From: a virus
Taxonomy: Duplodnaviria; Caudoviricetes
Virus record (IMG/VR): IMGVR_UViG_3300037400_001189
Span: 11,007 to 75,006 of that record
Direction: 5' to 3' (one strand)
Length of the DNA: 64,000 nt
Part shown: positions 6,434 through 26,589 of the stretch, one piece after another
How the letters are laid out: every line of letters begins with the position of its first letter
Numbering within the stretch: position 1 is the first letter of the stretch
Notes under the pieces: generated by a model
The model's database searches: none
What the model was told of the DNA's origin: nothing
The model's input: only the letters and a program-made list of their open reading frames with translations
Program-made: the position numbers and the translations under genes

Positions 6434-7195
6434 CTATGCCTCCTTTAGTTTCATTGACTTGAACAGAAGGTATACAAGAGAAGGATCTTCCTTAGCCTTT
6501 AAGCATGTATCTGCTATGAGATCCATGCAGTCTTTGAACTGCTGTTCTAGTTCATAGTCTATGGCTTTATCTGCAACTAGACATCTGGCAGGAAGAGTCT
6601 TGGTAGGCTTAATGCCGTATATGAGCCTTAGACTGTCAACTATCTTGCCAGTCTTTCTCAATGCCCAAGCATAGGCCATCATCTGCATTAGATACTTGAA
6701 TGGAAACTGTTCGTTAGGAACTCTGGAGACATTCTTGTAGTCGCACAGTATAGTGCCTTCAAGCCTGTCATAAGTTCCCTTGATATAGATTCCATCTCTG
6801 TATTCTACAGCTATTTTCTCTTCTAACCATAGATTCTTTGTCTGATGCTTTAGAACATATTCGTTCACTACAGCCATAGCTACGCTAGGATAGGTTGCCA
6901 TCACTTCATCTATATTGACATCAGGATTGTCTGACATTTCAGCTATGAGTTGTGCATTTATCCCTTCCCTGTCTACAGGTTCTCCCTTGGATACCTTTTC
7001 ATAGATGTAGTGGCATATAGTTCCAGTTACAGAAGCAGTATTGCCTTTAAACTCTGGTTCTTCTCCTAAGAAATTCTCCCTGTACCATACAGGAGGATAG
7101 TCGAAGAACTTATATATACCGCTTGGTGATATTCCTATGCATCCTTCAGGAATGCTGGGAGATTCATATTGAAACAGATCACTGCAGTCTTGCAT
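6434..7195 (-). CDS. PD-(D/E)XK exonuclease (RecB/Cas4-like)
   Basis: GTICH, GTYDRL...LCDYK and QMMAY motifs. Confidence 0.75.
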   Translation of the reverse strand: MQDCSDLFQYESPSIPEGCIGISPSGIYKFFDYPPVWYRENFLGEEPEFKGNTASVTGTICHYIYEKVSKGEPVDREGINAQLIAEMSDNPDVNIDEVMATYPSVAMAVVNEYVLKHQTKNLWLEEKIAVEYRDGIYIKGTYDRLEGTILCDYKNVSRVPNEQFPFKYLMQMMAYAWALRKTGKIVDSLRLIYGIKPTKTLPARCLVADKAIDYELEQQFKDCMDLIADTCLKAKEDPSLVYLLFKSMKLKEA

Positions 7196-7463
7196 TGTAT
7201 ATCTCCAGAAAGAACTTGGCTAAGTCTGAAGGAGTCTTGCATTCAGCAAATGCCTTCTGCTGCTCCTTGTTGAATGAAAGCTCATTCTCTTCGTAGCCTA
7301 GCTCTTTTTCTACATCTACAAGAATATCCATTCTATCTAGTGAATCTAATTCCAAGTCTTCCTTAAGATCAGAATCAGGTTCTGCATGCTTTTCAAATAA
7401 ATTGTATATTATTCTGCATATTAGTGCAGTCATTGAATCTTGGCTGTATTTTTTTGTAGCCAT
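7179..7463 (-). CDS. Acyl carrier protein
   Basis: 94-aa acidic protein with DLKEDLELDSLDRMDILVDVEKELG (DSL phosphopantetheine serine) and C-terminal KTPSDL helix; GGAGG RBS. Confidence 0.78.
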   Translation of the reverse strand: MATKKYSQDSMTALICRIIYNLFEKHAEPDSDLKEDLELDSLDRMDILVDVEKELGYEENELSFNKEQQKAFAECKTPSDLAKFFLEIYNARLQ

Positions 7464-7915
7464 AAGGTTAAGTCCTCCTCTATTTCTCCATTGTCTAGCT
7501 TGAACAGTCTCTGATTGGTATTGGGAGACTGCAGTCCTCCAAGTTCCTTCATATAGGGACCTACTTTGAGATAGTCCAGATAGTCCATATATTCGGTGCC
7601 TTCAAAGAAGGCTAGCTCCTGTCCGCTGTACAGTGCAGTCTTTTTTTCAGGATAGCCTCCTTTGACATATTTTATGAAGTTTATAAGAGAACTGTCCCAT
7701 TCTCCTCCCATGAAGAGAACACAGGTAGCTTTGTCATGCCTTTCCAGCATGTAGGATAAAGCTTCATAGGTGAATGGAGTTCCAAGCCTGTCATCCCATA
7801 GAGGCTCCCAATGGCATCCTTCACAGTGAATTGGACAGCCTGTAAAGGATATGCCAAGAGATATCTCTTTCGGTATTTCATTAAGGTATATATCGCAGTC
7901 AAAGTAGCTTAGCAT
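7430..7915 (-). CDS. nrdG: Anaerobic ribonucleotide reductase activating enzyme (radical SAM)
   Basis: GCPIHCEGCH (CxxxCxxC), FMGGEW, YLKVGPY and SPNTNQR motifs. Confidence 0.9.
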   Translation of the reverse strand: MLSYFDCDIYLNEIPKEISLGISFTGCPIHCEGCHWEPLWDDRLGTPFTYEALSYMLERHDKATCVLFMGGEWDSSLINFIKYVKGGYPEKKTALYSGQELAFFEGTEYMDYLDYLKVGPYMKELGGLQSPNTNQRLFKLDNGEIEEDLTLWLQKNTAKIQ

Positions 7916-7936
7916 GGCATACCTCCATATGCCTTA

Positions 7937-7978
7937 AAAACGCTCCAGAATCGTTTCTAAGCGACTTTGGAGCGTTTT
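7937..7978 (-). terminator. Long hairpin with U-tail directly upstream of nrdG (terminator or attenuator)
   Basis: AAAACGCTCCA/TGGAGCGTTTT 11-bp stem with an inner stem. Confidence 0.5.
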
Positions 7979-8032
7979 ATGATAAATCATACGTCTCTGC
8001 TTAAACAGAGCATTCTAGGGGCACTGCAGGGC

Positions 8033-8455
8033 TCAGAAAGGGTATCCTTTCTTTAGTGCTGAAAGCAGTTCCTGAGTCTGGCTGTAGATCGCCTTGCTGA
8101 GCAGAATGTTCGGATCGTCTTCAAGCACTTCAGGCTCTATTACATATGGAACTATTTCCTTTGACTTGGATATTCTGGAGTTTCTTATTTCCTCCATGCC
8201 ATCACTTATCATTTCCTTTATTGGATTGAACCACATGCGTACAGTTATGATGCTTAGCATTATGCATCCCGGCAGTATGGTCATGCATGCCATTATCATG
8301 AGATATAGCTTGTCTCCTTTGCATCCTAAGGTTTCCTGAACTGTCTCATATCCTAAATATCCAAGCATCATTAAGGAGGCTATGAGAACAAGCAGAAAGC
8401 AGCATGCAAAGACTATTTGAAACGTTCCATGTATCCTTTTATCCATCATGTCCAT
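8033..8455 (-). CDS. Membrane protein with two predicted TM helices, between nrdD and nrdG
   Basis: Hydrophobic segments FQIVFACCFLLVLIASLMMLGYL and LYLMIMACMTILPGCIMLSII. Confidence 0.7.
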   Translation of the reverse strand: MDMMDKRIHGTFQIVFACCFLLVLIASLMMLGYLGYETVQETLGCKGDKLYLMIMACMTILPGCIMLSIITVRMWFNPIKEMISDGMEEIRNSRISKSKEIVPYVIEPEVLEDDPNILLSKAIYSQTQELLSALKKGYPF

Positions 8456-10304
8456 GGTAATACCGTTTAGACTCCTCTATCTGCCTGTCTTTGGAGAAGT
8501 TTGATATTCTCCTTAGATAGCCGATAATTCTAGTGGCATAGTCCAAGTCTGCAGAACCGCAGGAAGGACAGTACTTCAAGGTATGCTTGTCGATATGTCC
8601 ACACTGGTTGCAGATTGTAATCTTCACGTTGGTAGTCCAGTAGCTGCACCCTACCTGTGCAGCTATGTCCAGAAGCTTTTCATAGGTTTCCTTGTCTGGA
8701 TATTCTTCAAGCTGAAGATGGCATGCAGAACCTCCATCCAGATAGTCTACAATTTCCTTTCCATGAAGAACCATCTTGTCAAGAATGGTTATGTCTTCAG
8801 ATTCAGATGGGAAGAAATAGGAATTGTAGCAGTCTCTTGGAACATAGTATCCATCCTTCTTGTCCCATTGGGCAAACTTGACTCCAAGGGATTCGCCGGG
8901 AACCATTTCAGTGTTGATTTTAACTCCTGCATGCTTCCTGCATGTTTCCTTGTTGCAGTCGCTGATGGCTTCAAGAATGGCTGCACAGAACGACTTATAT
9001 TCCTGATTGTTGGAAGGCTCTATTCCGCATGCTTCTGCAGCTTCCACTAGACCATTGATGCCAATGGTAAGAAACTGCTTGTCAAGGGAAATGTAGCCTG
9101 CATCGTATACAGGAAGCATTCCTCCTGCCTGCAGATCCTTGAACAGAGATCTGTAAGCTAGCTGATACTTGTGCATGAGGAATATCTGTTTTTTCAGTTC
9201 AGGAACCAGATCATCTCTTACGTCTACTACAGGATTTATTCTGGAATATACGTCTTGAGTGAATCTATTCAGATTGAGAGATATTACGTTCATTGAACCA
9301 GTCTGAACTCCTCCTGCTCCCAATGAATAGGAGAAGTCATTTTTGATTTCTTCCAGCTGGTCTCCAATGTAGTTCCTGAGACGGCAGCAGGAAGAGAGAC
9401 TGTCTACAGTATCTGAAGTGTAGATAAAGAAAGAATTGCCTTCAGATAGTTCTTGTGCAGTGAATTCTCTATAATCCTTGTCCAGTACACTATGTCCATC
9501 GTGCAGAAGAGCTACGGTTACTACAGGGAAAGTAAGAAGAGCCTTGGTACGTTCCTTGTTGAACCATTTCATGAAGAACTTCTGCAGCTTGTCTACGGAT
9601 TCCCATTTAGGCTTGTCTCCGTCTGGGAAATAGAAGTTTCCAAACAGGGAATCAAAATAGAACTTGTCAAAGATTGACACGTTCCAAAACACGGATTGAA
9701 AACCGCGTGCAGATGCAGGCTGGTTAAGAGCATACACAGTCTGCTGAAGCTCCTGAGTCACTTCATGCTCATGCGTATCCAGATAGTCGTCTCCATAGTC
9801 CTTTCTTGCAAAGTGATCGAAGCACAGGAAGTATTCTACGGTAGCTACTGCTCCTGCAAACTGGGAAGATATTGCAAAGATAAGATTGATGAATCCGCCA
9901 TTGAATGAAGACAGATGCCTAGGTGCCTTGGATTCCCCACCAAATGCTTTCAGTCCATCCGTGAGAAACGGATACATGGAAATAGCTACGCAATAGGGAA
10001 GAAAGGCGCTAGTTTCGTCATGAGCATAAATAAGGTGGTCTTCAAGCTGCTTAATATACGTTTCAGCAATCTCATCTCCATACAGTTCCTTAATTTTTCT
10101 AGTTACCAAGCCTCTCTTGACCTGAATGTTGATATCCTTGTTTAATTCAGCAAGCATGGTAGCTACGTTCTTGTTGGATACATTGCTGTTAGCGTCAAAG
10201 GTGCTTCCAGTAGCTGCATTGGAAGCCCCTATATAGCTGTCGATGAAGTCTAGTTTAGTTTTTAGCTGTGATTCGGACAGCCTGCACATTTTAGCTTTTG
10301 CCAT
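8439..10304 (-). CDS. nrdD: Anaerobic (class III) ribonucleoside-triphosphate reductase
   Basis: LSSCCRL, VPGESL, Zn site CNQC...CPSCG, and glycyl-radical motif TRIIGYL. Confidence 0.95.
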   Translation of the reverse strand: MAKAKMCRLSESQLKTKLDFIDSYIGASNAATGSTFDANSNVSNKNVATMLAELNKDINIQVKRGLVTRKIKELYGDEIAETYIKQLEDHLIYAHDETSAFLPYCVAISMYPFLTDGLKAFGGESKAPRHLSSFNGGFINLIFAISSQFAGAVATVEYFLCFDHFARKDYGDDYLDTHEHEVTQELQQTVYALNQPASARGFQSVFWNVSIFDKFYFDSLFGNFYFPDGDKPKWESVDKLQKFFMKWFNKERTKALLTFPVVTVALLHDGHSVLDKDYREFTAQELSEGNSFFIYTSDTVDSLSSCCRLRNYIGDQLEEIKNDFSYSLGAGGVQTGSMNVISLNLNRFTQDVYSRINPVVDVRDDLVPELKKQIFLMHKYQLAYRSLFKDLQAGGMLPVYDAGYISLDKQFLTIGINGLVEAAEACGIEPSNNQEYKSFCAAILEAISDCNKETCRKHAGVKINTEMVPGESLGVKFAQWDKKDGYYVPRDCYNSYFFPSESEDITILDKMVLHGKEIVDYLDGGSACHLQLEEYPDKETYEKLLDIAAQVGCSYWTTNVKITICNQCGHIDKHTLKYCPSCGSADLDYATRIIGYLRRISNFSKDRQIEESKRYYHGHDG

Positions 10305-10312
10305 TGCACCTC

Positions 10313-10801
10313 CTATCGGGTGCCTGAACTGCCGAAGCCTTCAGCACCCCTTTCAGTTGAGTCTAATGTCTGAACTTCAATCATCTGCATGAGATAGGAT
10401 TTCTCTATGCAGAACTGGCCTATCCTGTCTCCCTTGGAGATGTTGAATTCATAGTCGTTGGAGTTGTGCATGATAACTCCAATGCTGCCACGATAGGTTT
10501 CGTCTATGGTTCCAGTATGAACAAACAGTCCTCTTGACGCTAAACCGCTTCTTCCTCTTACTATGCCGTGATAGCCTCTGGGGAGCTGCACGGCTATGTT
10601 GGAGTGAACTATGGTAGTGTCGTGAGGATAAACTACGATATCTACATCCGAATAGATATCTAGGCAAGCATCTCCTTCACGGGAATACTTGAAGGGAATG
10701 GCAGTGTCTGTAAGCTTTTTAAAACATACCTGAGCTAGAGTACGGTTAGACGATACTCCAAATTCTACATATGAAACGTCTGTTACTGTTGGGTTGAGCA
10801 T
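10313..10801 (-). CDS. dut: Trimeric dUTPase
   Basis: RGRSGLA, GTIDETYRG, GDRIGQ and RGAEGFGSSG motifs. Confidence 0.92.
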   Translation of the reverse strand: MLNPTVTDVSYVEFGVSSNRTLAQVCFKKLTDTAIPFKYSREGDACLDIYSDVDIVVYPHDTTIVHSNIAVQLPRGYHGIVRGRSGLASRGLFVHTGTIDETYRGSIGVIMHNSNDYEFNISKGDRIGQFCIEKSYLMQMIEVQTLDSTERGAEGFGSSGTR

Positions 10802-11901
10802 TTATCCTCCAGAGAAGCTATTGCATTCTCTATGTCTTCTAGGGAGGCTCCATTAGGAACCTCTGCAGTGTCGTACCAGTTGTAGCCTATCTCTCCTACT
10901 GCTTCGTTATGAACTATCTGGTCTTCCAGAAAGTCTGCAGTCATTATAGGGATGATAGTATCATTTACCCATTTAACTAGCTCTGCATCCTTGTCAATGT
11001 GAATATAGAGAGCATCGTAGATGGAAGAGATAACTTCCACTCTATTTTCTAGATGGTTCTCTGCTATCTTTTCATTGAATCTATGAAGAGAGAGAAGAGA
11101 TAGAATTGACCAGAACTGCGAACAGGCATTGAACACTGTCCGTATTTCCTTTTCAGGATGGTCTGTAGTGATTCTGCATCCTAATCCTAATGGGATATAA
11201 CCTTTGCTTTTAGCCTTGACTAGAACAGTGCTTCTCATCTTGTCTACTCCCTTGTACAGTTCATCGTGATATCTATGAAAGATATTCTCTGCCTGTTCTA
11301 GAGAGCATTTAATGGAAGAAGCTACTTTCTCAGGATATGCGCCGTAGTTTAATCCGAAGCTAACTGGTTTAGACTTTTGGCGTATAGCCTTCAATGCCTT
11401 ATTGCCATTGTCTACTTCTCTTTTAAATCTCTTTACGAATGCATAGAGGTCTTCTCCTTCTTCTCTAGGAAGAATGGCTTCTACTTCATCTGTAAAATAG
11501 TAGTAGGCATTCAAACAGTGACCATCTATGCCTTGAGTGAAGATTGCACATTTATTCTTGTCTCTGGACAGATTGGCTATTACCCTGTCTTCTAGAGCAG
11601 AGAAGTCAACTTGATAGATTAAATGGTCTTTGTCTGTAGACAAGCATTGTTTGATTGGCTTTGCATAGACAGAACCAGTGGAAGGAGCATTTAATAAATT
11701 AGGAGCAGAAGAAGTGAGACGAAATGTTTTAGTACCAAACAGTTTGAAAGAACCGTACAGCCTCCCATTAACAGTATTGTCATAGAAAGCTTTAATGAAG
11801 TTGTTTCTAATGATAGCTGCATTGCTGTAATCTAGCATAGCATTAACTACTTCCTTTAGCTGTTTCAGTTCTTCCAGAGACAAATCGCTTACTATAGGCA
11901 T
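10783..11901 (-). CDS. Family A DNA polymerase, part 3 (end of thumb, palm, fingers)
   Basis: TFRLTSSAPNL, motif A DFSALEDR, motif B RQKSKPVSFGLNYG, motif C SIYDAL. Confidence 0.9.
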   Translation of the reverse strand: MPIVSDLSLEELKQLKEVVNAMLDYSNAAIIRNNFIKAFYDNTVNGRLYGSFKLFGTKTFRLTSSAPNLLNAPSTGSVYAKPIKQCLSTDKDHLIYQVDFSALEDRVIANLSRDKNKCAIFTQGIDGHCLNAYYYFTDEVEAILPREEGEDLYAFVKRFKREVDNGNKALKAIRQKSKPVSFGLNYGAYPEKVASSIKCSLEQAENIFHRYHDELYKGVDKMRSTVLVKAKSKGYIPLGLGCRITTDHPEKEIRTVFNACSQFWSILSLLSLHRFNEKIAENHLENRVEVISSIYDALYIHIDKDAELVKWVNDTIIPIMTADFLEDQIVHNEAVGEIGYNWYDTAEVPNGASLEDIENAIASLEDKCSTQQ

Positions 11902-12218
11902 TACAGTTCATCACTCTTTTCATCAAAGATTTCGTTAGGCTTAAGCCAGCTGTACATATCAGCAAAATAAGCATAGCCTGCAATGTCCACTGCATTGTCT
12001 TGATTCCACTGGTCTAGATCTGGATGGATTCTAGCTATCTTTAACAGCATCATCATTACGGCTACGTCTCTAGGACGTATGTCTATGCCTAGAAAAGTAC
12101 TCCAGTATCTAGATATTAAGACAAATACATCTTCAGGATATCCACCACGTTTGCCAGAAATGATGTCCAATGCCTGACTAAGAACATTCTTTGTTTCCAT
12201 TCTGTTCTCCTTGCTCAA
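11901..12218 (-). CDS. DUF6378-like protein (dATP/dGTP diphosphohydrolase-related fold), inserted inside the polymerase locus
   Basis: RGGYPEDVF...WSTFLG...DVAVMMMLLKIAR...DNAVDIAGYA; own AGGAG RBS before MET at about 12200. Confidence 0.65.
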   Translation of the reverse strand: MSKENRMETKNVLSQALDIISGKRGGYPEDVFVLISRYWSTFLGIDIRPRDVAVMMMLLKIARIHPDLDQWNQDNAVDIAGYAYFADMYSWLKPNEIFDEKSDEL

Positions 12219-12984
12219 TTAAAGTATCTAGAAGCTTGTTAAGCTTCTCCAGTTCATCCCTGTTCCAGCAGGGATTGCCTTTGCCAGTAGTAGCTTCAGA
12301 CTGTATGCCAAGAGAGGAGAAGAATTCCGTCTTCTGCTTTGCAGAACCACAATTGAATTCTTCTGCTTCTTCAGTCATAGCCTTGGTAAGCCTAGGCTCT
12401 ATTTTGCTCTTATAGTAAATATCATACTTGTCTGAAGCTAGCTTAAGCATTGCTCTATGCTTTAAATCGTCTAAGCTTTTATGCTCAGGTTCTTCCAATA
12501 AAAGAGAAAGAACAGGATCCTTATGTACCTTTAGAAGAAGCTTCAGATCTTTTAGAGTCCATTCAGGCTGATAGTAATCCATTTGATTCGTATCTTTCAG
12601 TCTCTGATTAACTAGATAGCTTCTATGAATCTTGTTAGATGGATTGCATTCCTTTGGAGTGAAGTCTTCTACAGTCTTTGCCTTCTGCTGTATGCTAGTG
12701 CATTTTACAGCTTGAGACATTGCAGATTGTTCCTGTCTAAACTTCTGCATAAGAGGATTCTGAAGCATAGTATGCTGTACGTTAGCTAATACGTCTTCTA
12801 CGGTATCTTCTAGAACTCTGACTTTGGAAAGGTCTATTGGAATGCCTGCATTTTGCATTTTAATAATATCCGGAAGAAGCATTGAAACTATATGGTCATA
12901 GAACCATTTGCCATCCTGTTCAGGAGGCACTTCCATAGGTCTAGGAATAGGTAGATATTCAGACATTTCATTCATATCTTCCAT
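12178..12984 (-). CDS. Family A DNA polymerase, part 2 (linker and thumb)
   Basis: MQNAGIPIDL, FNCGSAKQKTEFF (cf. FNLNSPKQL) and TTGKGNPCW thumb motifs. Confidence 0.72.
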   Translation of the reverse strand: MEDMNEMSEYLPIPRPMEVPPEQDGKWFYDHIVSMLLPDIIKMQNAGIPIDLSKVRVLEDTVEDVLANVQHTMLQNPLMQKFRQEQSAMSQAVKCTSIQQKAKTVEDFTPKECNPSNKIHRSYLVNQRLKDTNQMDYYQPEWTLKDLKLLLKVHKDPVLSLLLEEPEHKSLDDLKHRAMLKLASDKYDIYYKSKIEPRLTKAMTEEAEEFNCGSAKQKTEFFSSLGIQSEATTGKGNPCWNRDELEKLNKLLDTLIEQGEQNGNKECS

Positions 12985-13643
12985 GCCTCCAAGTCTTTGA
13001 GTATGTCCTGATACAGTGCATAAGTTGCACAGGCATCAGTAGCTGAATATTCAAGCATATAATCCTTATTCTGCTCTTCAAGAGTGAAACTGTCTTTAGA
13101 CAGTCCCCATTTGGAATACTTGTAGGACATTAATGTTTTCAAGCCAGTTTCTCCCTTGAGATGGTCTGCATTGTTGAGAATAGATTTAGCTAGAAGCTGA
13201 GTGTCTATTACATGCTTGGGAAGCTTATGAGTATAGTAGTAGATTATGCCTCCATCATAACCAAAGTTATGAAAGAGCATTGTCTTGTCTGTATTGACAA
13301 GAAATCTCATTAGCATGTCTACCATGTTAGGGTCTTCACAGACTAGAACATAAGCATCGTGGTCAGACCATGCCACTGACAGATGGGTAACTGTAGTTAA
13401 TGATGGATGTGATAGACCTGTACTGTTGACTGATTGCTTAAGCAGACGCTTCTCTTCTCTAGACAGAACAGGAGAGAACTTATCCAGTCTCCACTGATCC
13501 ATCTTCTTTTGAGAGCCATCTGCTCTTGGAGCCACTTCAAAGTCAGCAGCAAACAGGTCTGGAAGGCTTTCAAGCCATTTGCTTCCCCAGTATGTGCTAG
13601 ACGTGCTCTTGAAGCTTACATGCAGCGGCTGAGAGCTTGTCAT
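12972..13643 (-). CDS. Family A DNA polymerase, part 1 (3'-5' exonuclease)
   Basis: ExoI ADFE, ExoII FHNFGYD and ExoIII YSATD motifs. Confidence 0.82.
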   Translation of the reverse strand: MTSSQPLHVSFKSTSSTYWGSKWLESLPDLFAADFEVAPRADGSQKKMDQWRLDKFSPVLSREEKRLLKQSVNSTGLSHPSLTTVTHLSVAWSDHDAYVLVCEDPNMVDMLMRFLVNTDKTMLFHNFGYDGGIIYYYTHKLPKHVIDTQLLAKSILNNADHLKGETGLKTLMSYKYSKWGLSKDSFTLEEQNKDYMLEYSATDACATYALYQDILKDLEAWKI

Positions 13644-13860: not shown

Positions 13861-13869
13861 GAAATCCTC

Positions 13870-14347: not shown

Positions 14348-14368
14348 AACCTAATGCACTTTAAGGTT

Positions 14369-14680: not shown

Positions 14681-14699
14681 GGAATTCTCCTAATATGAG

Positions 14700-14771: not shown

Positions 14772-14794
14772 AGAAATTTGAAGAGGACAATTAG

Positions 14795-16745: not shown

Positions 16746-18956
16746 CTACTCCTGCCAGTTCCATCTGGATATCTGCCTCTCTAAAGCCAGCAGCCTGTCT
16801 TCAGGAAAAGGCTTTACCCAGTAGGAACTGATTTGATGAACAAGATCTAGTGCATAGTTCAAGTCTGCTCCAAGCTCTCTTGCATACTTTACAGCCCATA
16901 TAAGCTTTCTGGAGCCTTCTCCATCCTTAGCCTGAAATGCCTGTTCAAAGGTGCTTAATGGATTCTCAAGCATCTTGCTACAGGAACTTTTTGTAGGAGC
17001 TTTCTTAGGAGCTACAGGCTGTGCAGCAAGAAGATCTAGTACAGGCTTTACGTCAAATGGTTCTGCTTCCAGATTCTCCAAGAGAGTGAAAGCAGACTTT
17101 GCATAGCTGAAGAATATCTGGCTCTTTGGAAGCAAATCGCAGTTTAGTCCCAGTTCATTGGATACCAGTTCAAGAAACAGTCTCCATTGAATGTCTGGAA
17201 CATCTATTACGCAGGACAGTTCCAGCAGCACTCTATACTTGCTTTCATTGTCTGGATTGGATGTACGGCATATGAAATGCCTTATGTCTCCTAGAAGCAG
17301 ATGGGCTTCTGCATCAACTATTTCTGAATCGTCAATGTCAAGTACAAGCCATTTAGTTCCTCCTTCTATATTCTCTTTAGATCTTACTCCATTGGAGAAT
17401 ACAAAGTTTGAATAGGCAAAGTCTCCCTGAAGAAGATTCTTCAAATCCTTGAATTCCACCTCTTCAGATTGATAGCCCATAGCTACCTTGGTAGCTCTCT
17501 GCTGCTTGGTTCCAGATGCTTCTACATATGATACTGTAAGATACAGGGGCTTCTGCAGTTCTTCATAGAATACTTCATCTCCCTTGACAGTATAGGCTCC
17601 ATCCTTGTCGAATGAATTAGCAAGCTTAACCAGCTCTTTCATTTGAGTAGTAGAGCTTCCTTTTAAAGAGATAAATCCATGCTTTCTTAGATTATGCAGA
17701 GACATACTGTATCTGCCATCTAAAGCATACATTCTACAGTAGCTTGTAAAGAGTTCATATGGTTCCTTGACAAGCTCCTTTTCGAACAATCCTATGTCTT
17801 CAGAGATAAGCTCTACATAGCTGACTGCCTGTATGTAGTGTTCCTGCATGATAGTTGGAGAATACTCCAGAAGAGCCAATGCTCCAGCAAGCTTGAATGC
17901 CTTCCAGTACATGTGCTGTCTGCACAGCTTTGCAATAGGAAACATTGAGTTCATTGGCTTAGCCATTTCCTCGCAGTACTGCTTGTATAGAGTGCATAGC
18001 TCTCTGGCTTCCTTTGACACTGTTAAACAGGAGAATGGACAGGAAACTAGATCAACAGTGAGAGAATCTATGAACGTAGACAGTCTCTCTCTGCTTTCCT
18101 TTGCCTTGTCTTCCATAGCTGTCTGTGCAGCAAGAAGCTCGTCTACAGAATTGTAGTCTAGAACTTCTTCCTGATCATTGGCGAATATGAAGAAGGATCT
18201 TCTGGCAAGTTTAGTAGTGAATTGATCCTTAAACTTTCTTTTAATAGATTCATCAAACAGAAGATGGTCAGGGGATGATATGAACAATGCTGAGACGGGA
18301 AGATTCTTTATTTCCTTTCCCTGACGTTCTCTGTCCTTCAAGATTTTAACTTCCTTAGTTCCTTCATCATAGAGTTCAGAAATGATCTTGCACATTTCCA
18401 CCATATTGGCATTGGATTCCAGTTCCTGTCCAAATTCTCCTGAATATATGTAGCCTGCTCCCATAGGATTCTCAGCCAAGTCATTTAGATGCTGAAGAAA
18501 TCCTTCAGGAGTGGAAACAGCTACAAACAATGGATTAGGAGGCACTAAGAATTCCTTGTAGACTGAAAAGTCATTTGGATTTCTTTTACCTGCCTCCTTG
18601 GCTGCTTCCTTTGCATGTATCCTAGCAAAGTCAGCACGGTATTCATTTATTTTCTCATAGCTAGACTGAAAGCATTTCCGTGCATTTCGCAGAGAAGAAT
18701 CTTTTGCTGCACCAGACTTGGCAATGCAGAAGGTAATGGCATTCACTGGTATCATGCTGTCGTTCCAGTGCCTGATGTTGATGCGGAACTGGGAAGCATA
18801 CAGCATCAGTTCAGACACTGCAATGGCAGTCTTCATCCGATAGGGAAGAGTGGTAGTTGGAATGGAATCTGCCACTGCCTTTACAATTTCAGGAAGCTCT
18901 CCACTGAATGCTCCACGGCTGTAGAGTTCCTTTTCAAGCATGTCCAGCATGTTCAT
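16746..18956 (-). CDS. DNA primase (N4 gp43-like; DUF3987/P-loop N-terminus, AEP-type C-terminus)
   Basis: AKSGAAKDS, ELYD, WLVLDIDD, RTSNPDNESKYRVLL and a PriCT-like tail. Confidence 0.7.
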   Translation of the reverse strand: MNMLDMLEKELYSRGAFSGELPEIVKAVADSIPTTTLPYRMKTAIAVSELMLYASQFRINIRHWNDSMIPVNAITFCIAKSGAAKDSSLRNARKCFQSSYEKINEYRADFARIHAKEAAKEAGKRNPNDFSVYKEFLVPPNPLFVAVSTPEGFLQHLNDLAENPMGAGYIYSGEFGQELESNANMVEMCKIISELYDEGTKEVKILKDRERQGKEIKNLPVSALFISSPDHLLFDESIKRKFKDQFTTKLARRSFFIFANDQEEVLDYNSVDELLAAQTAMEDKAKESRERLSTFIDSLTVDLVSCPFSCLTVSKEARELCTLYKQYCEEMAKPMNSMFPIAKLCRQHMYWKAFKLAGALALLEYSPTIMQEHYIQAVSYVELISEDIGLFEKELVKEPYELFTSYCRMYALDGRYSMSLHNLRKHGFISLKGSSTTQMKELVKLANSFDKDGAYTVKGDEVFYEELQKPLYLTVSYVEASGTKQQRATKVAMGYQSEEVEFKDLKNLLQGDFAYSNFVFSNGVRSKENIEGGTKWLVLDIDDSEIVDAEAHLLLGDIRHFICRTSNPDNESKYRVLLELSCVIDVPDIQWRLFLELVSNELGLNCDLLPKSQIFFSYAKSAFTLLENLEAEPFDVKPVLDLLAAQPVAPKKAPTKSSCSKMLENPLSTFEQAFQAKDGEGSRKLIWAVKYARELGADLNYALDLVHQISSYWVKPFPEDRLLALERQISRWNWQE

Positions 18957-18958
18957 GT

Positions 18959-19546: not shown

Positions 19547-19555
19547 TTCAGTCTC

Positions 19556-19792
19556 CTAGTCTGAATCTGATATGAAAAGCTTTTTCCAGTCTTCTTCTGT
19601 TATGGTAAGACATTCCCTTTCCAGTTCATCAGGAAAGGGACAGTTAAATACTTCACCTAAAGGACAATGCTTTTCCCATTTTCTTTTCTGCTCATTCTGG
19701 CCTTCCAGAAGCTGCTCTCCAAATGCATGACATCTCTTGTAGAGCATTTGTGCAGAAAATGGAGTTGGACATGCTACATAGTTCATAGTCAT
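19556..19792 (-). CDS. Small Cys-rich hypothetical protein
   Basis: 78-aa ORF containing HCPLGEVFNCPF. Confidence 0.6.
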   Translation of the reverse strand: MTMNYVACPTPFSAQMLYKRCHAFGEQLLEGQNEQKRKWEKHCPLGEVFNCPFPDELERECLTITEEDWKKLFISDSD

Positions 19793-19855
19793 CCTTTGCA
19801 GCTCTCTCTGTCCTAGGAGGTATTCAATGAACTCTCTCTAGGACAGGAGGCACTG

Positions 19856-20497: not shown

Positions 20498-20855
20498 TGT
20501 CTTCTTTTATTACATCCATCATCCATTTGTTGGTAAGTGCAGTTAAAGTTTCGAGAAGGTTGGTTCCCATGGTTGCAACCTTCTCGTTGTTTACCACAGC
20601 CGGGACTATGTACATGGCTGCTAGAAGCTTCGTATCTGGCAAGAGGGTCTTCCCCGCAACCAAAATGCTCAATATCAGCAAAGCACGTTTAGCATGCTTC
20701 CAAAATCCGTCTGGAATGTCAGAACTATCATGGCGATTTAAGAAAACAGCCATTCCAACAGCCCCTATGACTGTAACGGATGCAAATATTGAGAAACCAA
20801 GCACTGCATGAATATTGTCAAGAATGCCTATCAGATACACTTCTAGAGCAGTCAT
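20445..20855 (-). CDS. Membrane protein with 2-3 TM helices
   Basis: Several hydrophobic segments; AGGAGG RBS. Confidence 0.7.
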   Translation of the reverse strand: MTALEVYLIGILDNIHAVLGFSIFASVTVIGAVGMAVFLNRHDSSDIPDGFWKHAKRALLILSILVAGKTLLPDTKLLAAMYIVPAVVNNEKVATMGTNLLETLTALTNKWMMDVIKEDNDKNAMEKRSNGSKTSI

Positions 20856-20863
20856 GCTTCCTC

Positions 20864-21049
20864 CTAGGCTACGGGTAGATCTACTACTAGATCGACATTA
20901 TCGACTTCACCTACAGTTTCATCGCCTTTCTTGCCAATCATGGTAAGATTGGTTTCATCAACTTCAGGAGAATTTGGATTGAGAGATTTAAGCTGGTCAT
21001 TGAGAACCTTGACAAACTGATCTTTGCCAAACCTAACTGATACTTGCAT
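20864..21049 (-). CDS. Small hypothetical protein
   Basis: 61-aa ORF with GGAGG RBS. Confidence 0.65.
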   Translation of the reverse strand: MQVSVRFGKDQFVKVLNDQLKSLNPNSPEVDETNLTMIGKKGDETVGEVDNVDLVVDLPVA

Positions 21050-21050
21050 T

Positions 21051-22031
21051 CTAGCCTCCGTAAGTGCGAATTATTTCGTTCATCTTTCTCATGTAGCGTT
21101 GACAGGTAGACTTCTTGATGCCCATCTTCTTACAAATCTGGGCTTCAGAAAGACCATCTGTCTTAACGTACTTGTACAGATCCTTGTAACGTCCAGTAAG
21201 ATACCTAGGACAGTCATCCTCTTCTGGAAGAAGATCAGATTCCTCTTCATATTCCTCCTCTTCAGCACGAAGAAGATTAGTGTCTCCAATGGTATCATAC
21301 TCTCTGAGCTTCTTCAGCTTAATAGCTTCATTAGCCTTTTCTTCGAGAATAGCCACTGTCTTGTACTTCCTGCACCTTCCCTTAGAGAAGTTGTAGTCGT
21401 CAGGAATGGCTACAATGTCCCTAGGATCAACTTCTACTGCAATGACCGTATCTCCGCTGAAGCAGTTGAGATAGCTGTAGGAGCAGAAGTGAAGGCCATT
21501 GGAGCATGTCCTAGTGCGATCTGTATCGAATTCCTTCTCTTCAGTGTATTGGCCTACTGCATGCTGAGTAGTTCCATCATGGCAGGAAGTAAGATCTGAA
21601 TTCACTCTCTTGTAGGCAATAAGATTGCCTTCTCTAGTGATTTCAAAATCTCCTGCTTCGCAGAATTCATACAGTTCAGTAAGACAGTTGATGAACTTGT
21701 TTTGAAGAATCTTCATCAGGAAAGGCTTTACAGGCTCGATGTCTGCGTTTTCAGAAATCATGCCTCTCTTAACGAGAAGCTTGATAAAGTTGGAAAGCTC
21801 GTTCCTGCTGACGATTTCAGTGCCGTCTTCAGTAACTGGAATTCCATTCTTTACCTTGACAGTGCCAAGAATGATAAGCTTGGTGCTTTCAAAATAGTTT
21901 CGTATGAAAGCTTCATCGTCATTGACTGCAGCTTTATACACCCTGTTGAAATTAGGTTCATCGGAAGAAATGGAATAGAGCTCTCCGTCAAGAACGATGG
22001 TAAGCATTCCGTCTGTCTTGATGTAAGTCAT
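21051..22031 (-). CDS. rIIB: rIIB-like protein
   Basis: LIAYKRV, RTCSNGLHFCS and VDPRDIVAIPDDY...KGRC motifs; follows rIIA; C-terminal HTH. Confidence 0.85.
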   Translation of the reverse strand: MTYIKTDGMLTIVLDGELYSISSDEPNFNRVYKAAVNDDEAFIRNYFESTKLIILGTVKVKNGIPVTEDGTEIVSRNELSNFIKLLVKRGMISENADIEPVKPFLMKILQNKFINCLTELYEFCEAGDFEITREGNLIAYKRVNSDLTSCHDGTTQHAVGQYTEEKEFDTDRTRTCSNGLHFCSYSYLNCFSGDTVIAVEVDPRDIVAIPDDYNFSKGRCRKYKTVAILEEKANEAIKLKKLREYDTIGDTNLLRAEEEEYEEESDLLPEEDDCPRYLTGRYKDLYKYVKTDGLSEAQICKKMGIKKSTCQRYMRKMNEIIRTYGG

Positions 22032-22040
22032 TTGACCTCC

Positions 22041-24359
22041 CTACAGATGGTTTTTGTTGTTTAAAATGAAATTGGCAATCCTGTACTGGTCTTCCTTGCT
22101 AGGAAACCTGTAGCTGCTTCTCCTCTCGGAGAAATAGTTATAAAACTTTGCCAGTCTAGGCAGAATGGCAATGTTTCTGTACTCGCATATCCTGACTGTG
22201 GAAGAACCTTTGAAAAATCTTTCCATTAGGTCTGTCATGCTGTCATACAAGCTATCCAGTGAATTTCTAGCTATCTTTTCTATAAAAGACAGATACATCT
22301 CATGCATTTTATAGATATAGCTGCTTTTCAGTCTTCTTATAAGACTGAGATGCAGCTTTATGCCTCTCTGCCTTCTGATTTCATGATCTTCAGTAAACAT
22401 TTTGCTTACGAAATAAAGTTCAGAGATGTCTACAGAACGAGACTTTATGTACATGGATATGCTCATTGCCTTTACGTCTTCTATCAGCTTGTTAAAGTCC
22501 AAAGGCTTCAATCCCATGTCTAGTGCCTGTTTATAGCCTCTTGAAGACAGAAAAAGAACATGATGCTTGGAATTTACATCATTTATTCCTTTTACATTGA
22601 TGCCTTGATTTGCCAATGCTTCGTCAACTGCAATGTTTCCTTTGGAATTTGTAATCTTGCGGTTGAATAGAAACATAAGGGCTCTAAGGTCTTCAAGATG
22701 TGGACAGTCCTTCTTTAATGCAACTCCAATTACGTTCCAGCTGTTTACCTGCTTTTCCAGAGTAGAATCTCTGAAATACATTGGACATGCATTGTTGTAG
22801 TTGGACATTTCAATAACGCCTACAAGAGTGTTCACAGGAGCAGAAGGAGTTTTTCTTTTTGCTGGAGCACTCTTGAACTTCCTAAGGAAAGTCTTTATCG
22901 GCATTATCTGAATGTCGAAATTAAGCTCTGGAATGCTATTGTAAGTCCAAACTATGTTTTTAAGATACTGAATTGCTTCTTTAGGTTCTATTCCAGTAGC
23001 ACAGGGAATTCCTTTAGTTAAAGCATGTGCACATATTGGATATTCACTGTCATTGGGATGATTAAGCCAACGGTCATAATTAAATCCCTTTACATAGATG
23101 TTCATGTCCTTAAAGTCAGGATAGGTTGACATCTTACGTTTTACCTTGCTCCAGTCAGGATCATTTCCTTTTCCAACAACAATTATCATTGGAATATCAT
23201 CTCTTACGGATGACTCTGAAAGACTGAAATAATCCTTTACATAGCTTTTTATTTCAAACAGTCCTGCTATGTAACCTGTATAGGCAATCTTATGCATTGA
23301 CCTGTCTTTATAGGATTTCTGTACATCTATGGAACTGCTGTCTCTGTAGTATGTGTAAGTACTCAGGAAAGACTTAGTTGGAAAATACTTTTTCCTTAGT
23401 GCTTCAGCTATAGGTTCATGAAGATAGGAATTAAACACGAATGTAGAATGAGGTTCAAATTCGTTAAGAATGTTGGACATTAGTTTTTGAACTGAATTCT
23501 TCATTCTAATGAGATTTCTTTTGTTGGATTCACTTTCTGACAAGGCTTCCCTTGAAGGAACTATTTCAAATGTTCCAATGGGAACTTCCACCACTGCAGT
23601 GAATCCATATAGAGAGATATCTTCCTTGCATTGAAAGATATTCATGCCCTGCTTAATGTAAGGACATGAATTTCTGTATGAACTATTGTCCATAGCAAGT
23701 CTTACCTTGCAGAAGCTGTCTTCATATTCCTTAAAGAATTCTACATATTCTACAGATGCATTGGCTTCTATAGCTTTTCCCAAGTCAGGCTGATACTTAA
23801 CGTACTTGCAGAATTCATAGTAGAAGTCTTTGTCTCCTTCAGGAACAGGGATAGTAATCTTAAGGCCATTGCCTTCATCAGTTTCCTTTTCTCCAATCTT
23901 GGTTACCTTAGGATAGCCATTCATCTTAGCCATAAGATACTTTTTGGAAATTCCATTCTGGAAAGATTCAACCATAAAGCTGTCTCCATAGGCAAATGGA
24001 GACTTGGAACCTAAGCCATAGCAGCCTGTGAATTCATTTGAATCACGCTTAGTGGACTTAAAGAAAGTAGTGTACAGATTGAACACTTCTTCTTCAGACA
24101 GTCCATTGCCGTAGTCCCTGACAATGAATCGGGATTCCATCATGTCTGGAAAGTGGACTTCTATCTTTTTGCTTTCAAGAGTTCCTGCCTCTGCCATTGC
24201 ATCGTAGGCATTTGACAGAATCTCCCTGACGATAGCTAAAGTCGTGTTTGAATACAGCCTTGAAGACAGGATGTCGAAGGCAACTGGACTAGCTTCTATT
24301 CCAAAAGACTTGAAAGTGTTCTGGAAATTGGATTCAGTGGCTGCAGTGGCCAGTAGCAT
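22041..24359 (-). CDS. rIIA: rIIA-like protein (GHKL/HSP90-type ATPase N-terminus)
   Basis: LYSN...IVREILSNAYDA, VRDYGNGLS, STKRDSNE and GLGSKSPFAY motifs. Confidence 0.88.
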   Translation of the reverse strand: MLLATAATESNFQNTFKSFGIEASPVAFDILSSRLYSNTTLAIVREILSNAYDAMAEAGTLESKKIEVHFPDMMESRFIVRDYGNGLSEEEVFNLYTTFFKSTKRDSNEFTGCYGLGSKSPFAYGDSFMVESFQNGISKKYLMAKMNGYPKVTKIGEKETDEGNGLKITIPVPEGDKDFYYEFCKYVKYQPDLGKAIEANASVEYVEFFKEYEDSFCKVRLAMDNSSYRNSCPYIKQGMNIFQCKEDISLYGFTAVVEVPIGTFEIVPSREALSESESNKRNLIRMKNSVQKLMSNILNEFEPHSTFVFNSYLHEPIAEALRKKYFPTKSFLSTYTYYRDSSSIDVQKSYKDRSMHKIAYTGYIAGLFEIKSYVKDYFSLSESSVRDDIPMIIVVGKGNDPDWSKVKRKMSTYPDFKDMNIYVKGFNYDRWLNHPNDSEYPICAHALTKGIPCATGIEPKEAIQYLKNIVWTYNSIPELNFDIQIMPIKTFLRKFKSAPAKRKTPSAPVNTLVGVIEMSNYNNACPMYFRDSTLEKQVNSWNVIGVALKKDCPHLEDLRALMFLFNRKITNSKGNIAVDEALANQGINVKGINDVNSKHHVLFLSSRGYKQALDMGLKPLDFNKLIEDVKAMSISMYIKSRSVDISELYFVSKMFTEDHEIRRQRGIKLHLSLIRRLKSSYIYKMHEMYLSFIEKIARNSLDSLYDSMTDLMERFFKGSSTVRICEYRNIAILPRLAKFYNYFSERRSSYRFPSKEDQYRIANFILNNKNHL

Positions 24360-24400
24360 TTTAAATTCTCCTTTGCAGTTCTAGTGTCTTCTCAATTAAA

Positions 24401-24420
24401 AAGCCTCCTTTCGGAGGCTT
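24401..24420 (-). terminator. Terminator downstream of the tRNA pair
   Basis: AAGCCTCC-GAAA-GGAGGCTT followed by TTTAATT on the minus strand. Confidence 0.75.
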
Positions 24421-24426
24421 GAAATT

Positions 24427-24503
24427 TGGCGGGTCTAGAAGGAGTCGAACCTTCGACCAACAGCTTAGAAGGCTGATGCTCTATCCTACTGAGCTATAGA
24501 CCC
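24427..24503 (-). tRNA. tRNA-Arg(TCT) with CCA
   Basis: Complete cloverleaf: GGGTCTA/TAGACCC acceptor, CTTCTAA loop, TTCGACT T-loop. Confidence 0.93.
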
Positions 24504-24506
24504 TTA

Positions 24507-24590
24507 TGGTACAGGCAGAGGGATTCGAACCCTCATGGCATAAGCCGGAGCATTTTGAGTGCTGTGCGTATTCCATTCCGCCATGCCTGC
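24507..24590 (-). tRNA. tRNA-Leu(CAA) with long variable arm and CCA
   Basis: GCAGGCA/TGCCTGT acceptor, CTCAAAA loop, GGC/GCC variable arm, TTCGAAT T-loop. Confidence 0.92.
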
Positions 24591-24599
24591 ATTGTAATT

Positions 24600-24734
24600 C
24601 TAGTTGTCTCCACCACCTAGATGGAAAAAGAACATGAATGCCATAGCCAGAATTATTGGAGCAAGAATGAAGCAGCAGAACACTCCAGTTCCAGCTATAG
24701 CTGCAGCTATCAAAGTATCAACTATCTGGTTCAT
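24600..24734 (-). CDS. Small single-TM membrane protein
   Basis: MNQIVDTLIAAAIAGTGVFCCFILAPIILAMAFMFFF; start re-called at the ATG with an AGGA RBS. Confidence 0.45.
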   Translation of the reverse strand: MNQIVDTLIAAAIAGTGVFCCFILAPIILAMAFMFFFHLGGGDN

Positions 24735-24903
24735 GATCGTTCCTGCCTGTTCTTTCATTAAATTCAAATTCATCTTCAGGTTCCTCTTCCTCATACTCTC
24801 CGTCTTCGGAATATTCCCATTCAGTACATGGAAAAGGAATTCCCTTTCCCCAAGTGCAGTGTCCATATGTGTTTTCATATGGACATCCCATTCCGTAGCA
24901 CAT
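24718..24903 (-). CDS. Small Cys-rich protein with acidic tail
   Basis: MCYGMGCPYE...C...PC followed by an E/D-rich tail. Confidence 0.55.
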   Translation of the reverse strand: MCYGMGCPYENTYGHCTWGKGIPFPCTEWEYSEDGEYEEEEPEDEFEFNERTGRNDHEPDS

Positions 24904-24912
24904 GGCTTTCTC

Positions 24913-25107
24913 CTATGCTTCAAATCCTTCAACATCTCTCATGAGCTTGTCATGCTTGTACTGGTATCTTGCTTCCTTTCTCATCTTGGCTAAATGCCTT
25001 GCCTCCTTCTGCTTTCGTTCCCGCCTCTGCACTTTCTGCTTCAGCTTGTACTCTTCGTCATCGTCATCAATGTCTTCATAGCAGTCGTAGCGGTAGTAGC
25101 GTGACAT
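24913..25107 (-). CDS. Small hypothetical protein
   Basis: 64-aa ORF with GGAGG RBS. Confidence 0.65.
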   Translation of the reverse strand: MSRYYRYDCYEDIDDDDEEYKLKQKVQRRERKQKEARHLAKMRKEARYQYKHDKLMRDVEGFEA

Positions 25108-25482
25108 CTAGTCCTCCTTCAGTTTTACGATTTCGCCTTCTTCGTTAGTATAGAAGACGTTCTTTATTCCTATGTAGTTCATCAGCTTTCTGCACATCTC
25201 GCATGGACATGCATTGCCAAGCCTTTCCTCAGCCCTGCTTATCTTCACGACAAGCATGGAGCAGCCTTTCAGCTTCTTCCATTCCAAACCAAGTAATGCA
25301 GACTGTTCCGCATGTAAAGAGTTCTCGTAGTTTTTATGTTTGAGGGAAGAGGAACGTATCTGGTTCCAGCCAGTAGACAGAATCCTCTTTCCCTTAAACA
25401 CGACAGCTCCAAGTTTAACCCTGTAGGTGGATTTCCTAGCAGCTTCTATGGCTGCATGGAGTATGCCTGTAGACAGTGCCAT
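25108..25482 (-). CDS. Cytidine/dCMP deaminase family protein
   Basis: Zn-binding HAE and PCEMC motifs; KLGAVV...STGWN. Confidence 0.85.
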   Translation of the reverse strand: MALSTGILHAAIEAARKSTYRVKLGAVVFKGKRILSTGWNQIRSSSLKHKNYENSLHAEQSALLGLEWKKLKGCSMLVVKISRAEERLGNACPCEMCRKLMNYIGIKNVFYTNEEGEIVKLKED

Positions 25483-25590
25483 GGATATGCCCTAATTTTG
25501 CACGAGGATGGCTTCTCCTGCATTTCTTTTAGCTTCATGGATGATTTATCCTGAAACTTCAGGAAATGCCTTAGAGAGCCTTCTAGGGGC

Positions 25591-26589
25591 CTAAATAGAC
25601 GTTCGTATGCAAATGGATGCACAATGTCCATTTAAACCTACCGAATTGATGCAGGCTACGGAGTTCTTAGGAGAGGATGCCACGGTAAGAGCAGTCTCCA
25701 CTGCTCCACATGCTCCCAGCATGTGTCCCAGATGCTTCTTCCAAGTGAATGTCTTAGGCTTCTCTTTAAATTCAAACATCTCGCAATGTCTCTTTACTGC
25801 TTCCATCTCTACTTCGTCTCCCATTGGAGTGCCTGTGGCATGCATGGAGAGAACGGAAGGAACGAAGTTGAAGCATGCAGTTCTCATGCATGCAAATATT
25901 TCGTCTGGAGAAGATGCAGTTCTAGACATTCCTGTATGTTCAGAGAAGCCTTCTATGATTCCATAGATGTTTCTGCCATGCTCTAGTGCATCGTAATAGT
26001 CTTCCAGAACAAGCAGTCCACAGCCTGAAGAGAGAACTGTTCCTGTCCTGTCTGGATCTAGAGGCATGCATTCATGCTTAGTGAGAAGATGCATCTTCCT
26101 GAAGAACTCAAGAGTGTTGAGGTCTAGTGCATTTGTACCTCCCACTACTGCCATGTCTGCATAGCCATGCCTGATAGCCTTCACTCCTGCTATGATGTTG
26201 GAAAGAGAAGTGCAGCATACGGAAGATATGCCTTGCACTGTTCCTCTGAATCTGTTTGCAAGAGCTACAGTATCTGCAACATTGGAATTAAAAGACTTGT
26301 AGAAGTCTGATGCACGTTCTAGTTCCTTTCCATGAGTACTGATCTCTCCTATGTAGACATCAGTGTTAGGAGCAAACCATAGAGCTTCCTTTTCCTTGAT
26401 GGCATCTAGAGTGTCTAGTGCCATCTTTGAAGAAGAAATGTTTCCACAGGAACCATACGGATAGGGATAGTCTTCATGCTTTCTATAGCATTTCATTCCC
26501 TTCTCTATGAATTCCTTGGTGGATTCTAGTGAGCCAAGAGGAGTAGTCACTCCCATTCCAACGATAGCTACTGGAATATAGTGGTTCAT
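25591..26589 (-). CDS. Beta-ketoacyl-ACP synthase (FabF/FabB-like condensing enzyme), compact
   Basis: VAIVGMGVTTPLG, catalytic SVCCTS, AVVGG, CMPLDPDRTG, LLVLE, MHATGTPMGD, KKHLGHMLGACG and NSVGLNG motifs. Confidence 0.9.
   Translation of the reverse strand: MNHYIPVAIVGMGVTTPLGSLESTKEFIEKGMKCYRKHEDYPYPYGSCGNISSSKMALDTLDAIKEKEALWFAPNTDVYIGEISTHGKELERASDFYKSFNSNVADTVALANRFRGTVQGISSVCCTSLSNIIAGVKAIRHGYADMAVVGGTNALDLNTLEFFRKMHLLTKHECMPLDPDRTGTVLSSGCGLLVLEDYYDALEHGRNIYGIIEGFSEHTGMSRTASSPDEIFACMRTACFNFVPSVLSMHATGTPMGDEVEMEAVKRHCEMFEFKEKPKTFTWKKHLGHMLGACGAVETALTVASSPKNSVACINSVGLNGHCASICIRTSI

Follow-up and report, generated by a model that had tools for sequence, protein, structure and literature searches.

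In rhizobia, the specialised acyl carrier protein (ACP) NodF and the synthase NodE, which is similar to β-ketoacyl-ACP synthase (KAS) II, rely on the housekeeping type II fatty acid synthesis (FASII), and their product goes to an acyltransferase. For bacteriophages, we know of no ketosynthase or carrier protein with a demonstrated function, and in print they are just items in lists of auxiliary genes. Here we analyzed a window of 64,000 nucleotides (the whole stretch of DNA under study), which represents bases 11007-75006 of the 75,006-bp IMG/VR viral contig IMGVR_UViG_3300037400_001189. The contig has direct terminal repeats and is rated 100% complete. It encodes a ketosynthase (KS) similar to FabF and FabB, an ACP and a small protein, named X in the following (Table 1). 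We tentatively regard KS, ACP and X as one dispersed, phage-private acyl-carrier system relying on AcpS and FabD of the host, and give this explanation somewhat less than an even chance. Like NodF and NodE, the phage has a dedicated carrier and a condensing enzyme without its own reductase, dehydratase, malonyl transferase or phosphopantetheinyl transferase (PPTase). Unlike in rhizobia, the genes are not adjacent, and the likeness drawn here concerns the set of components.

All mentions of phage KS or carrier proteins that we found in the literature are annotation-level only. They comprise acpP-fabF-fabG in predicted Rhodobacteraceae prophages, fabF in virome lists including rumen viral contigs (PMC5704599) and the carrier of Alteromonas phage R22Y, which is listed as the auxiliary gene “ACP” (PMC11705849). 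The initial annotation of this DNA, made from the sequence, knew of no described pair of KAS and ACP in N4-like phages. This is not supported as stated, since an N4-like carrier is in print as an auxiliary gene (PMC11705849). In R22Y, in contrast to the phage analyzed here, the carrier belongs to a cassette type described below and lies beside X in the virion block, and there is no KS. New here is a variant whose genes are dispersed and apparently replaced, and whose FabF-derived KS follows a hairpin of the early type.

Both open reading frames (ORFs), KS and ACP, exist exactly as initially described. The KS matches the Pfam families PF00109 (ketoacyl-synt N) with 79.3 bits and PF02801 (C) with 39.9 bits at a cut-off of 20.8 bits. 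Among the NCBIfam models, 24 KS models are matched, every one far under its curated cut-off; the best of them, the fabF equivalog TIGR03150, gives 105.2 bits versus a cut-off of 493.75, which leaves the protein outside the FabF equivalog. The residues C125, H250, K284 and H289 are invariant in an alignment of 35 sequences containing phage variants and distant KS homologues. They correspond to C163, H303, K335 and H340 of Escherichia coli FabF in the alignment as well as in comparison with solved FabF/OXSM structures. The motifs quoted in the initial annotation for an intact Cys-His-His triad (SVCCTS, MHATGT and KKHLGH) indeed fall on FabF Cys163, His303 and His340. The AlphaFold2 model has a predicted local distance difference test score (pLDDT) of 91 and a predicted template modeling score (pTM) of 0.92, and its best structural matches are FabF and FabB with TM-scores of 0.85-0.89 normalised to the query. 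The phage enzyme therefore shares with E. coli FabF (KAS II) and FabB (KAS I) the thiolase fold, the Cys-His-His triad and the equivalents of Lys335, Asp311, Glu314 and Phe202. These residues suggest that the decarboxylating condensing-enzyme chemistry is retained.

Unlike FabF and FabB, the phage KS is shortened, by about 80 residues compared to FabF; the docking segment and a loop ahead of the gate are deleted and the gate residues are changed. The residues of FabF that dock AcpP have been listed as K65, R68, K69, R127, K128 and R206, together with the hydrophobic patch 129-132 (PMC7138838). The segment containing K65, R68 and K69 is deleted in the phage KS, and R127, K128 and R206 are replaced by E89, L90 and H167. 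Taken together, the docking residues and the 129-132 patch are either deleted or aligned with E89, L90, E91, R92, A93, S94 and H167; beside the deletions the alignment to FabF is uncertain, but it leaves no doubt that the basic patch as a whole is lost. The GFGG gate of FabF reads GLNG, hence Phe400 is changed to Leu. Of the other gate positions, N396 is retained, N404 is Cys323 and D265 of loop 2 falls into a gap. The loop of about 36 residues that precedes the gate in FabF is missing. Judged from the alignment, the surfaces which make FabF and FabB partners of the housekeeping ACP are not preserved, and this argues against a plain FabF substitute.

A phylogeny of the KS had been proposed as a check. 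A quickly computed maximum-likelihood tree unites the nine phage KSs in a single clade with a support of 100 on a stem of 4.4 substitutions per site, outside both the FabF and the FabB clades. The stem arises from an unresolved polytomy which includes E. coli FabF and the FabB-containing clade. Among 5.8 billion protein clusters no protein with more than about 33% identity to the KS was found outside this phage lineage. A profile-free scan of 1.84 billion representatives gave no single-domain KS relative beyond the phage cluster in the top 150, which otherwise consist of multi-domain megasynthases. Short KS forms of bacteria (P0034-P0036) have no kinship with the phage clade, and their gene neighborhoods are ordinary bacterial ones.

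The ACP matches PF00550 with 26.7 bits (cut-off 20.8) and its Ser41 is invariant in 15 of 15 variants, which agrees with the DSL serine named in the initial annotation. The matches among PDB sequences are all ACPs, and the alignments span DSLD and helix II. The structural model is of moderate quality (pLDDT 72) with helices at residues 8-26, 41-54, 66-73 and 78-93; its top fold matches are all ACPs, with weak E-values as expected at such a small size. In NCBIfam the best ACP model reaches 25.6 bits versus a 65-bit cut-off, and the protein is thus not assigned to the housekeeping AcpP equivalog. Aligned by eye on DSLD to E. coli AcpP, helix II retains the acidic and hydrophobic positions used by AcpP partners. 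It is plausible from these positions that host AcpS and FabD could act on the phage ACP. A search for a PPTase (PF01648) gave no match at E<=10 in the whole 75,006-bp genome. No FabD, FabG, FabZ or acyltransferase family was found among the Pfam matches, which cover most called genes, except for some ORFs and the larger part of the giant virion ORF. The lack of a PPTase, reductase and acyltransferase, as initially noted, was thus seen again within these limits, and host enzymes would be needed.

Within the lineage, 31 KS variants and 44 ACP variants were collected. Where determined, the identity of the KS variants to this KS is 83-100%, and almost all of them have a length of 332 amino acids. 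The pairwise ratio of nonsynonymous to synonymous substitutions (dN/dS) lies between 0.10 and 0.28 in the KS and between 0 and 0.13 in the ACP, and many ACP pairs show 5-13 synonymous changes with zero replacements. Both genes are under purifying selection. The order of a putative RNA polymerase (RNAP) gene, the KS and a gene similar to dCMP/cytidine deaminases recurs on many independent assemblies (JGI, ENA and Logan). Co-occurrence of KAS and ACP in related genomes, which had also been proposed as a check, was found: both are present in this genome and on four sibling contigs of 59-77 kb, namely a 73,814-bp Logan contig and ENA contigs of 76,353, 77,071 and 59,493 bp. On the Logan contig both proteins are identical to those analyzed here, and it likely represents the same virus. 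No counter-example was seen among sibling contigs long enough for both genes. A 68-kb IMG/VR contig (G002) appeared to be a KS-less exception, but the assembly is broken at this point, and the 8.4 kb that contain the KS form a contig of their own in the same metagenome. In a relative with 48% identity, the 99-amino acid ORF at the position of the ACP is not a carrier and shares the locus only. With the ACP as query, tblastn matched nothing in the public phage collection. Matches of the KS in this collection (“Bacteriophage sp.”, e.g., MT835740.1, locus L037) look like host DNA; by our own reading, ORF sizes and order in MT835740.1 are those of a bacterial fab/acc operon.

For comparison with more distant phages, a profile of the primase/helicase (16746-18956) was used, which revealed 80 related viral loci. 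The comparison set consists of 34 genomes: the whole records of 31 long loci, the Alteromonas phages PT11-V19 and R22Y, and this genome. There is no Pfam-detectable KS in the relatives. Two weak PP-binding matches, however, exposed a three-gene cassette in their virion block. It consists, in this order, of a carrier (79-93 amino acids, with a G/L-D-S-F/L-G motif), a mini-ketosynthase (mini-KS, 277-286 amino acids) and X (155-176 amino acids). The mini-KS was found in six relatives (G006, G009, G010, G020, G029 and G034), located between carrier and X. Its Cys, His, Lys and His are invariant, and a comparison with the KS alignment by hhalign (98.5%, E 1.6e-15) identifies it as a genuine homologue of KSs. 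X occurs in 11 of the 34 genomes, 10 relatives and the phage analyzed here, and the cassette carrier is present in exactly the 10 X-bearing relatives, always immediately upstream of X. G031, G032, PT11-V19 and R22Y have carrier and X without a KS. If the unlinked ACP of this phage is included, a carrier occurs in 11 of 11 X-bearing genomes and a KS in 7 of 11, while neither was found in the 23 X-negative records, 8 of which are at least 90% complete. In the whole set, a genome has a carrier if and only if it has X, and a KS is found solely where both occur. No PPTase was detected in the 10 cassette-bearing genomes. The carrier matches in two relatives (G020:C1:15761-15997 and G029:C1:51035-51283) contain one in-frame TAG each; the match may extend too far, the sequence may contain an error or the stop codon may be reassigned.

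In the phage analyzed here, X was recognized with a profile built without its own sequence (Table 1). The gene starts 8 nt past the ORF of a 502-amino acid virion structural protein (phrog_2050) and abuts the start of a 918-amino acid ORF, so that no carrier or KS adjoins it. The profile of the cassette carrier has no match in this genome, and the mini-KS profile matches the 332-amino acid KS alone, with 25.9 bits. The three functions, the structural position of X, the Cys-His-His-Lys set of the KS and the lack of a detected phage PPTase are common to this phage and its relatives. In contrast to the relatives, the genes are dispersed over 48 kb, the ACP is of the fatty acid synthase (FAS) type and the KS is a FabF-derived protein of 332 amino acids, not a member of the 277-286-amino acid family. 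No profile similarity of this ACP to the cassette carriers was found. Bacterial KSs are by far nearer kin of this KS (99.9%, E 8.8e-34) than the mini-KS family is, and the latter is no closer to it than to bacterial KSs. A relocation of the cassette genes is not supported by these kinship tests, and independent replacement is the better reading. Because carrier and KS are unlinked to X and of different origin here, the simplest account would be a functional replacement, in which the lineage kept X and the need for a carrier and a condensing enzyme, now provided by other genes. The cassette's own carrier and KS would have been lost from the X site, while an unrelated FAS-type ACP and a FabF-derived KS would act from elsewhere.

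X itself has no significant match in Pfam, PHROGs or the PDB sequence profile, or to gp13 of phage T7. Its nearest named neighbors in language-model features are viral GNAT acetyltransferase clusters, which is a weak lead and often due to chance. A small acetyltransferase-like gene is known to head the internal-virion-protein module of podoviruses (PMC4819975), and the position of X matches that of this gene. X, a small gene without annotation, occupies a position equivalent to that of T7 gp13 (IVP-A) and of the module-heading gene, in that a virion structural or tail gene precedes it and large ejection-type ORFs follow. The comparison with T7 gp13 is limited in that no similarity to the X family was detected and that the only pointer to a GNAT fold of X is its language-model neighbors.

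In the proposed phage-private system, host AcpS would add phosphopantetheine to Ser41 of the phage ACP, as no phage PPTase was found, and host FabD would load malonate onto it. The early-made KS would then decarboxylate malonyl-ACP or condense it with an acyl primer via Cys125, His250, His289 and Lys284, which would yield an acyl or β-ketoacyl thioester on the phage ACP. For this step, the chemistry is read from the intact catalytic residues and the ACP as partner from the distribution of the genes. Finally, and speculatively, X may take the acyl-ACP as its substrate; it could be an acyltransferase whose target is an ejection protein or something else. Among the roles listed in the initial annotation, a dedicated acyl-ACP for protein acylation is favored, because the KS has lost the AcpP-docking residues and because the relatives have a cassette of carrier, mini-KS and X, of which X is kept here; a general diversion of host FASII fits less well. 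We consider it unlikely on present evidence that an acyl group actually passes from the phage ACP onto an ejection protein. The same low probability applies to a private N4-like lipidation pathway, in which the KS-assisted carrier would donate an acyl chain that X attaches to an internal or ejection protein and which would have been kept despite replacement by unrelated genes. Such a lipidation could possibly aid injected proteins and the giant polymerase to cross the host envelope.

Several observations weigh against a joint system of KS, ACP and X. The three genes are 18-30 kb apart in this phage and appear to belong to different expression classes, with an early-type hairpin for the KS, the replication operon for the ACP and the virion genes for X. 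For X there is no significant database match, and its nature as an acyltransferase is putative. The co-occurrence of carrier and X in the relatives is largely linkage, and the independent event is essentially this one lineage. No relation of ACP and KS to cassette carrier and mini-KS was detected beyond the family level, and the replacement is inferred. In addition, helix II of the ACP resembles that of a housekeeping FAS ACP, which also fits a simple use of host FASII.

This last point leads to the explanation that KS and ACP are ordinary auxiliary metabolic genes, unlinked to X, which feed or redirect host FASII, e.g., for membrane lipids during a long N4-type infection. The catalytic residues of the KS are the set of an elongating KAS, the acidic AcpP-like residues in helix II of the ACP are those used by FASII enzymes, expression of the KS is probably early, fabF is among the genes listed for rumen viral contigs (PMC5704599), and the presence of rIIA/rIIB-like genes may point to a delay of lysis. 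Against this explanation, the KS is without two features that FabF and FabB have in common, the basic AcpP-docking patch and the gating loops; it scores 105 bits against the 494-bit cut-off of the fabF equivalog, and its stem outside both clades measures 4.4 substitutions per site. Moreover, KS and carrier are confined to X-bearing genomes in the comparison set. We therefore consider this explanation rather improbable. A little less probable still is that the two genes act independently of each other, with the ACP alone as the carrier for X or as a binder of a host ACP client, and the KS otherwise acting on host acyl-ACP or acyl-CoA. It would account for the four genomes with carrier and X without a KS, for the distance of 18 kb between KS and ACP in probably different transcription classes, and for the far stronger constraint on the ACP than on the KS. 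It would not explain why a KS occurs solely where a carrier occurs among the 34 genomes and why KS and ACP are together on every sibling contig able to hold both. The loss of the surface for the housekeeping ACP also fits better with a dedicated partner.

The lost docking and gating residues might alternatively indicate that the KS is not an enzyme but a decoy or inhibitor binding malonyl-ACP, acyl-ACP or a FASII protein, or that it only decarboxylates malonyl-ACP to drain the pool. Mutation of Phe400, which is Leu in the phage KS, was reported to disturb the reaction order (PMC7138838). A decoy, however, has no need for intact Cys, His, His, Lys, Asp and Glu, whereas no residue of the catalytic set varies among the aligned phage variants and distant KS homologues and the dN/dS of the whole protein is 0.10-0.28; this role is thus very improbable. 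The suspicion that host contamination or misassembly put a bacterial fabF into the contig arises from the many “phage” records of the public collection which match the KS and represent host fab operons. It is effectively refuted: the same gene and synteny are found on independent JGI, ENA and Logan assemblies, the search of 5.8 billion clusters found bacterial proteins with up to about 33% identity only, the best 150 matches among 1.84 billion representatives include no single-domain relative beyond the phage cluster, and the KS is preceded by a phage-type hairpin and Shine-Dalgarno sequence.

These findings go beyond an entry in a gene list in three respects. A complete lytic phage genome retains both genes under selection, the enzyme shed the surfaces which bind the housekeeping carrier, and in the relatives the genes for carrier and KS co-occur exclusively with one small gene that heads the ejection module. 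If KS, ACP and X act together, they would represent a virus-made acyl transfer system, possibly for the lipidation of virion proteins, a kind of phage biochemistry that is to our knowledge undescribed so far. The enigmatic small gene at the start of the internal-virion-protein module in podoviruses would then have a function as well. Since the genes are dispersed in this phage, it is also a natural case in which their functional linkage can be tested independently of adjacency.

Table 1. Features of the phage genome discussed in the text. Positions refer to the window.
Feature	Position	Strand	Evidence or remark
PD-(D/E)XK nuclease gene	6434..7195	-	Start overlaps ACP stop by 17 nt
ACP, 94 aa, DSL serine Ser41 at start of helix II	7179..7463	-	PF00550, PDB matches, model, dN/dS
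NrdG-like radical-SAM activase gene	7430..7915	-	3' end overlaps ACP start by 34 nt
tRNA-Leu(CAA), tRNA-Arg(TCT) and strong terminator (24401-24420)	24401..24590	-	Probable end of the KS unit
dCMP/cytidine deaminase-like gene, 124 aa	25108..25482	-	Directly downstream of KS
KS, FabF/FabB-like ketosynthase, 332 aa	25591..26589	-	Pfam, alignment, predicted fold, dN/dS
Hairpin TGACA-CTA-TGTCA	26614..26626	-	25 nt ahead of KS start codon, followed by AGGAGG ribosome-binding site
Intrinsic terminator, 13-bp stem and T run	26721..26750	-	Ends the putative RNAP gene unit, just upstream of KS
Protein X, 164 aa	55698..56192	+	hmmsearch E 2.2e-13; profile search 185.5 bits

The genomic context of both genes corresponds to the initial description. 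The ACP gene lies inside an nrdG-exonuclease operon and overlaps both the NrdG-like and the PD-(D/E)XK nuclease gene; embedded in this replication operon, it would be co-expressed with replication genes. An ORF of 140 amino acids (8033-8455, minus strand) is located between the nrdD and the nrdG-like gene and overlaps the end of nrdD. By eye, its product has hydrophobic stretches similar to membrane segments; it is conserved in siblings and has no family match.

The KS was described to stand behind its own hairpin after the RNAP terminator, and both elements were located (Table 1). The same layout of hairpin, spacer and Shine-Dalgarno sequence is found at nine early ORFs (29099-33090). In their hairpins, the two arms of the stem are complementary but differ in sequence from ORF to ORF, and the loop is A(T/C)TA or GTTA; the loop of the KS hairpin reads CTA or ACTAT. 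The hairpins are placed 15-30 nt ahead of a strong Shine-Dalgarno sequence, and most of those of the early ORFs come after a terminator or T run. They are candidate single-stranded hairpin promoters for the virion polymerase. As this layout is common to the nine early ORFs, the KS probably belongs to the early expression class, and its hairpin is a candidate for an early promoter element. Between the KS and the strong terminator behind the tRNA genes, the sole terminator-like site is a weak one at 25296-25313 inside the deaminase-like gene, which is therefore likely co-transcribed with the KS. The transcription unit probably consists of the KS, the deaminase-like gene, two small ORFs, tRNA-Leu and tRNA-Arg. 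In the siblings, an RNA ligase gene of about 950 bp (RNA_ligase and T4_Rnl2_C) is located between the tRNA/terminator region and rIIA (12200-13153 in L003 and about 12215-13170 in L002). It is absent here (24374-24393), which represents a clean presence/absence polymorphism. The KS slot upstream of rIIA is occupied in a relative with 58% identity (L055, 1522-2979) by a gene for a 485-amino acid DUF2828/DUF7788/vWA-type protein; in this comparison, the slot is a variable “cargo” site.

The genome also encodes rIIA-like (HATPase_c_3) and rIIB-like proteins, ThyX, NrdD, the NrdG-like activase and a dUTPase. The putative T7-type RNAP, so named in the initial annotation, is a 574-amino acid ORF, of which the position and the relatives were confirmed. 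The closest cultured relatives are the Alteromonas phages PT11-V19 and R22Y (about 40% identity in the AAA_24 protein), and in the Alteromonas phages AD45-P1 to P4 the counterpart of the 574-amino acid protein is 32% identical. R22Y was placed in the Schitoviridae by its authors (PMC11705849). N4-like phages are characterized by a giant virion-borne ORF of the RNA polymerase type, rIIA/rIIB and genomes of about 70-75 kb. Because of the cultured kin and this classification, “N4-like” is a reasonable, tentative label for the phage analyzed here. The strong AGGAGG sites and the kinship with Alteromonas phages are a hint to a Gammaproteobacterium as host. Going by the sample labels, the metagenomes may be from rumen.

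The giant ORF is located at 61891-63999 and 2-2098 of the window, continues into the first 11 kb of the genome and thus spans the contig ends; on a sibling contig it is called as one gene of 5,028 amino acids. The “direct terminal repeat” ends hence interrupt the largest gene. Probably, the assembly was closed into a circle and the point at which the contig starts was set by the assembly process. DNA polymerase A (10783-13643) is split into ORFs for the exonuclease, a middle part and the palm/fingers, with a DUF6378 gene in between. The same split is found in relatives, and in L055 a DNA ligase gene is inserted.

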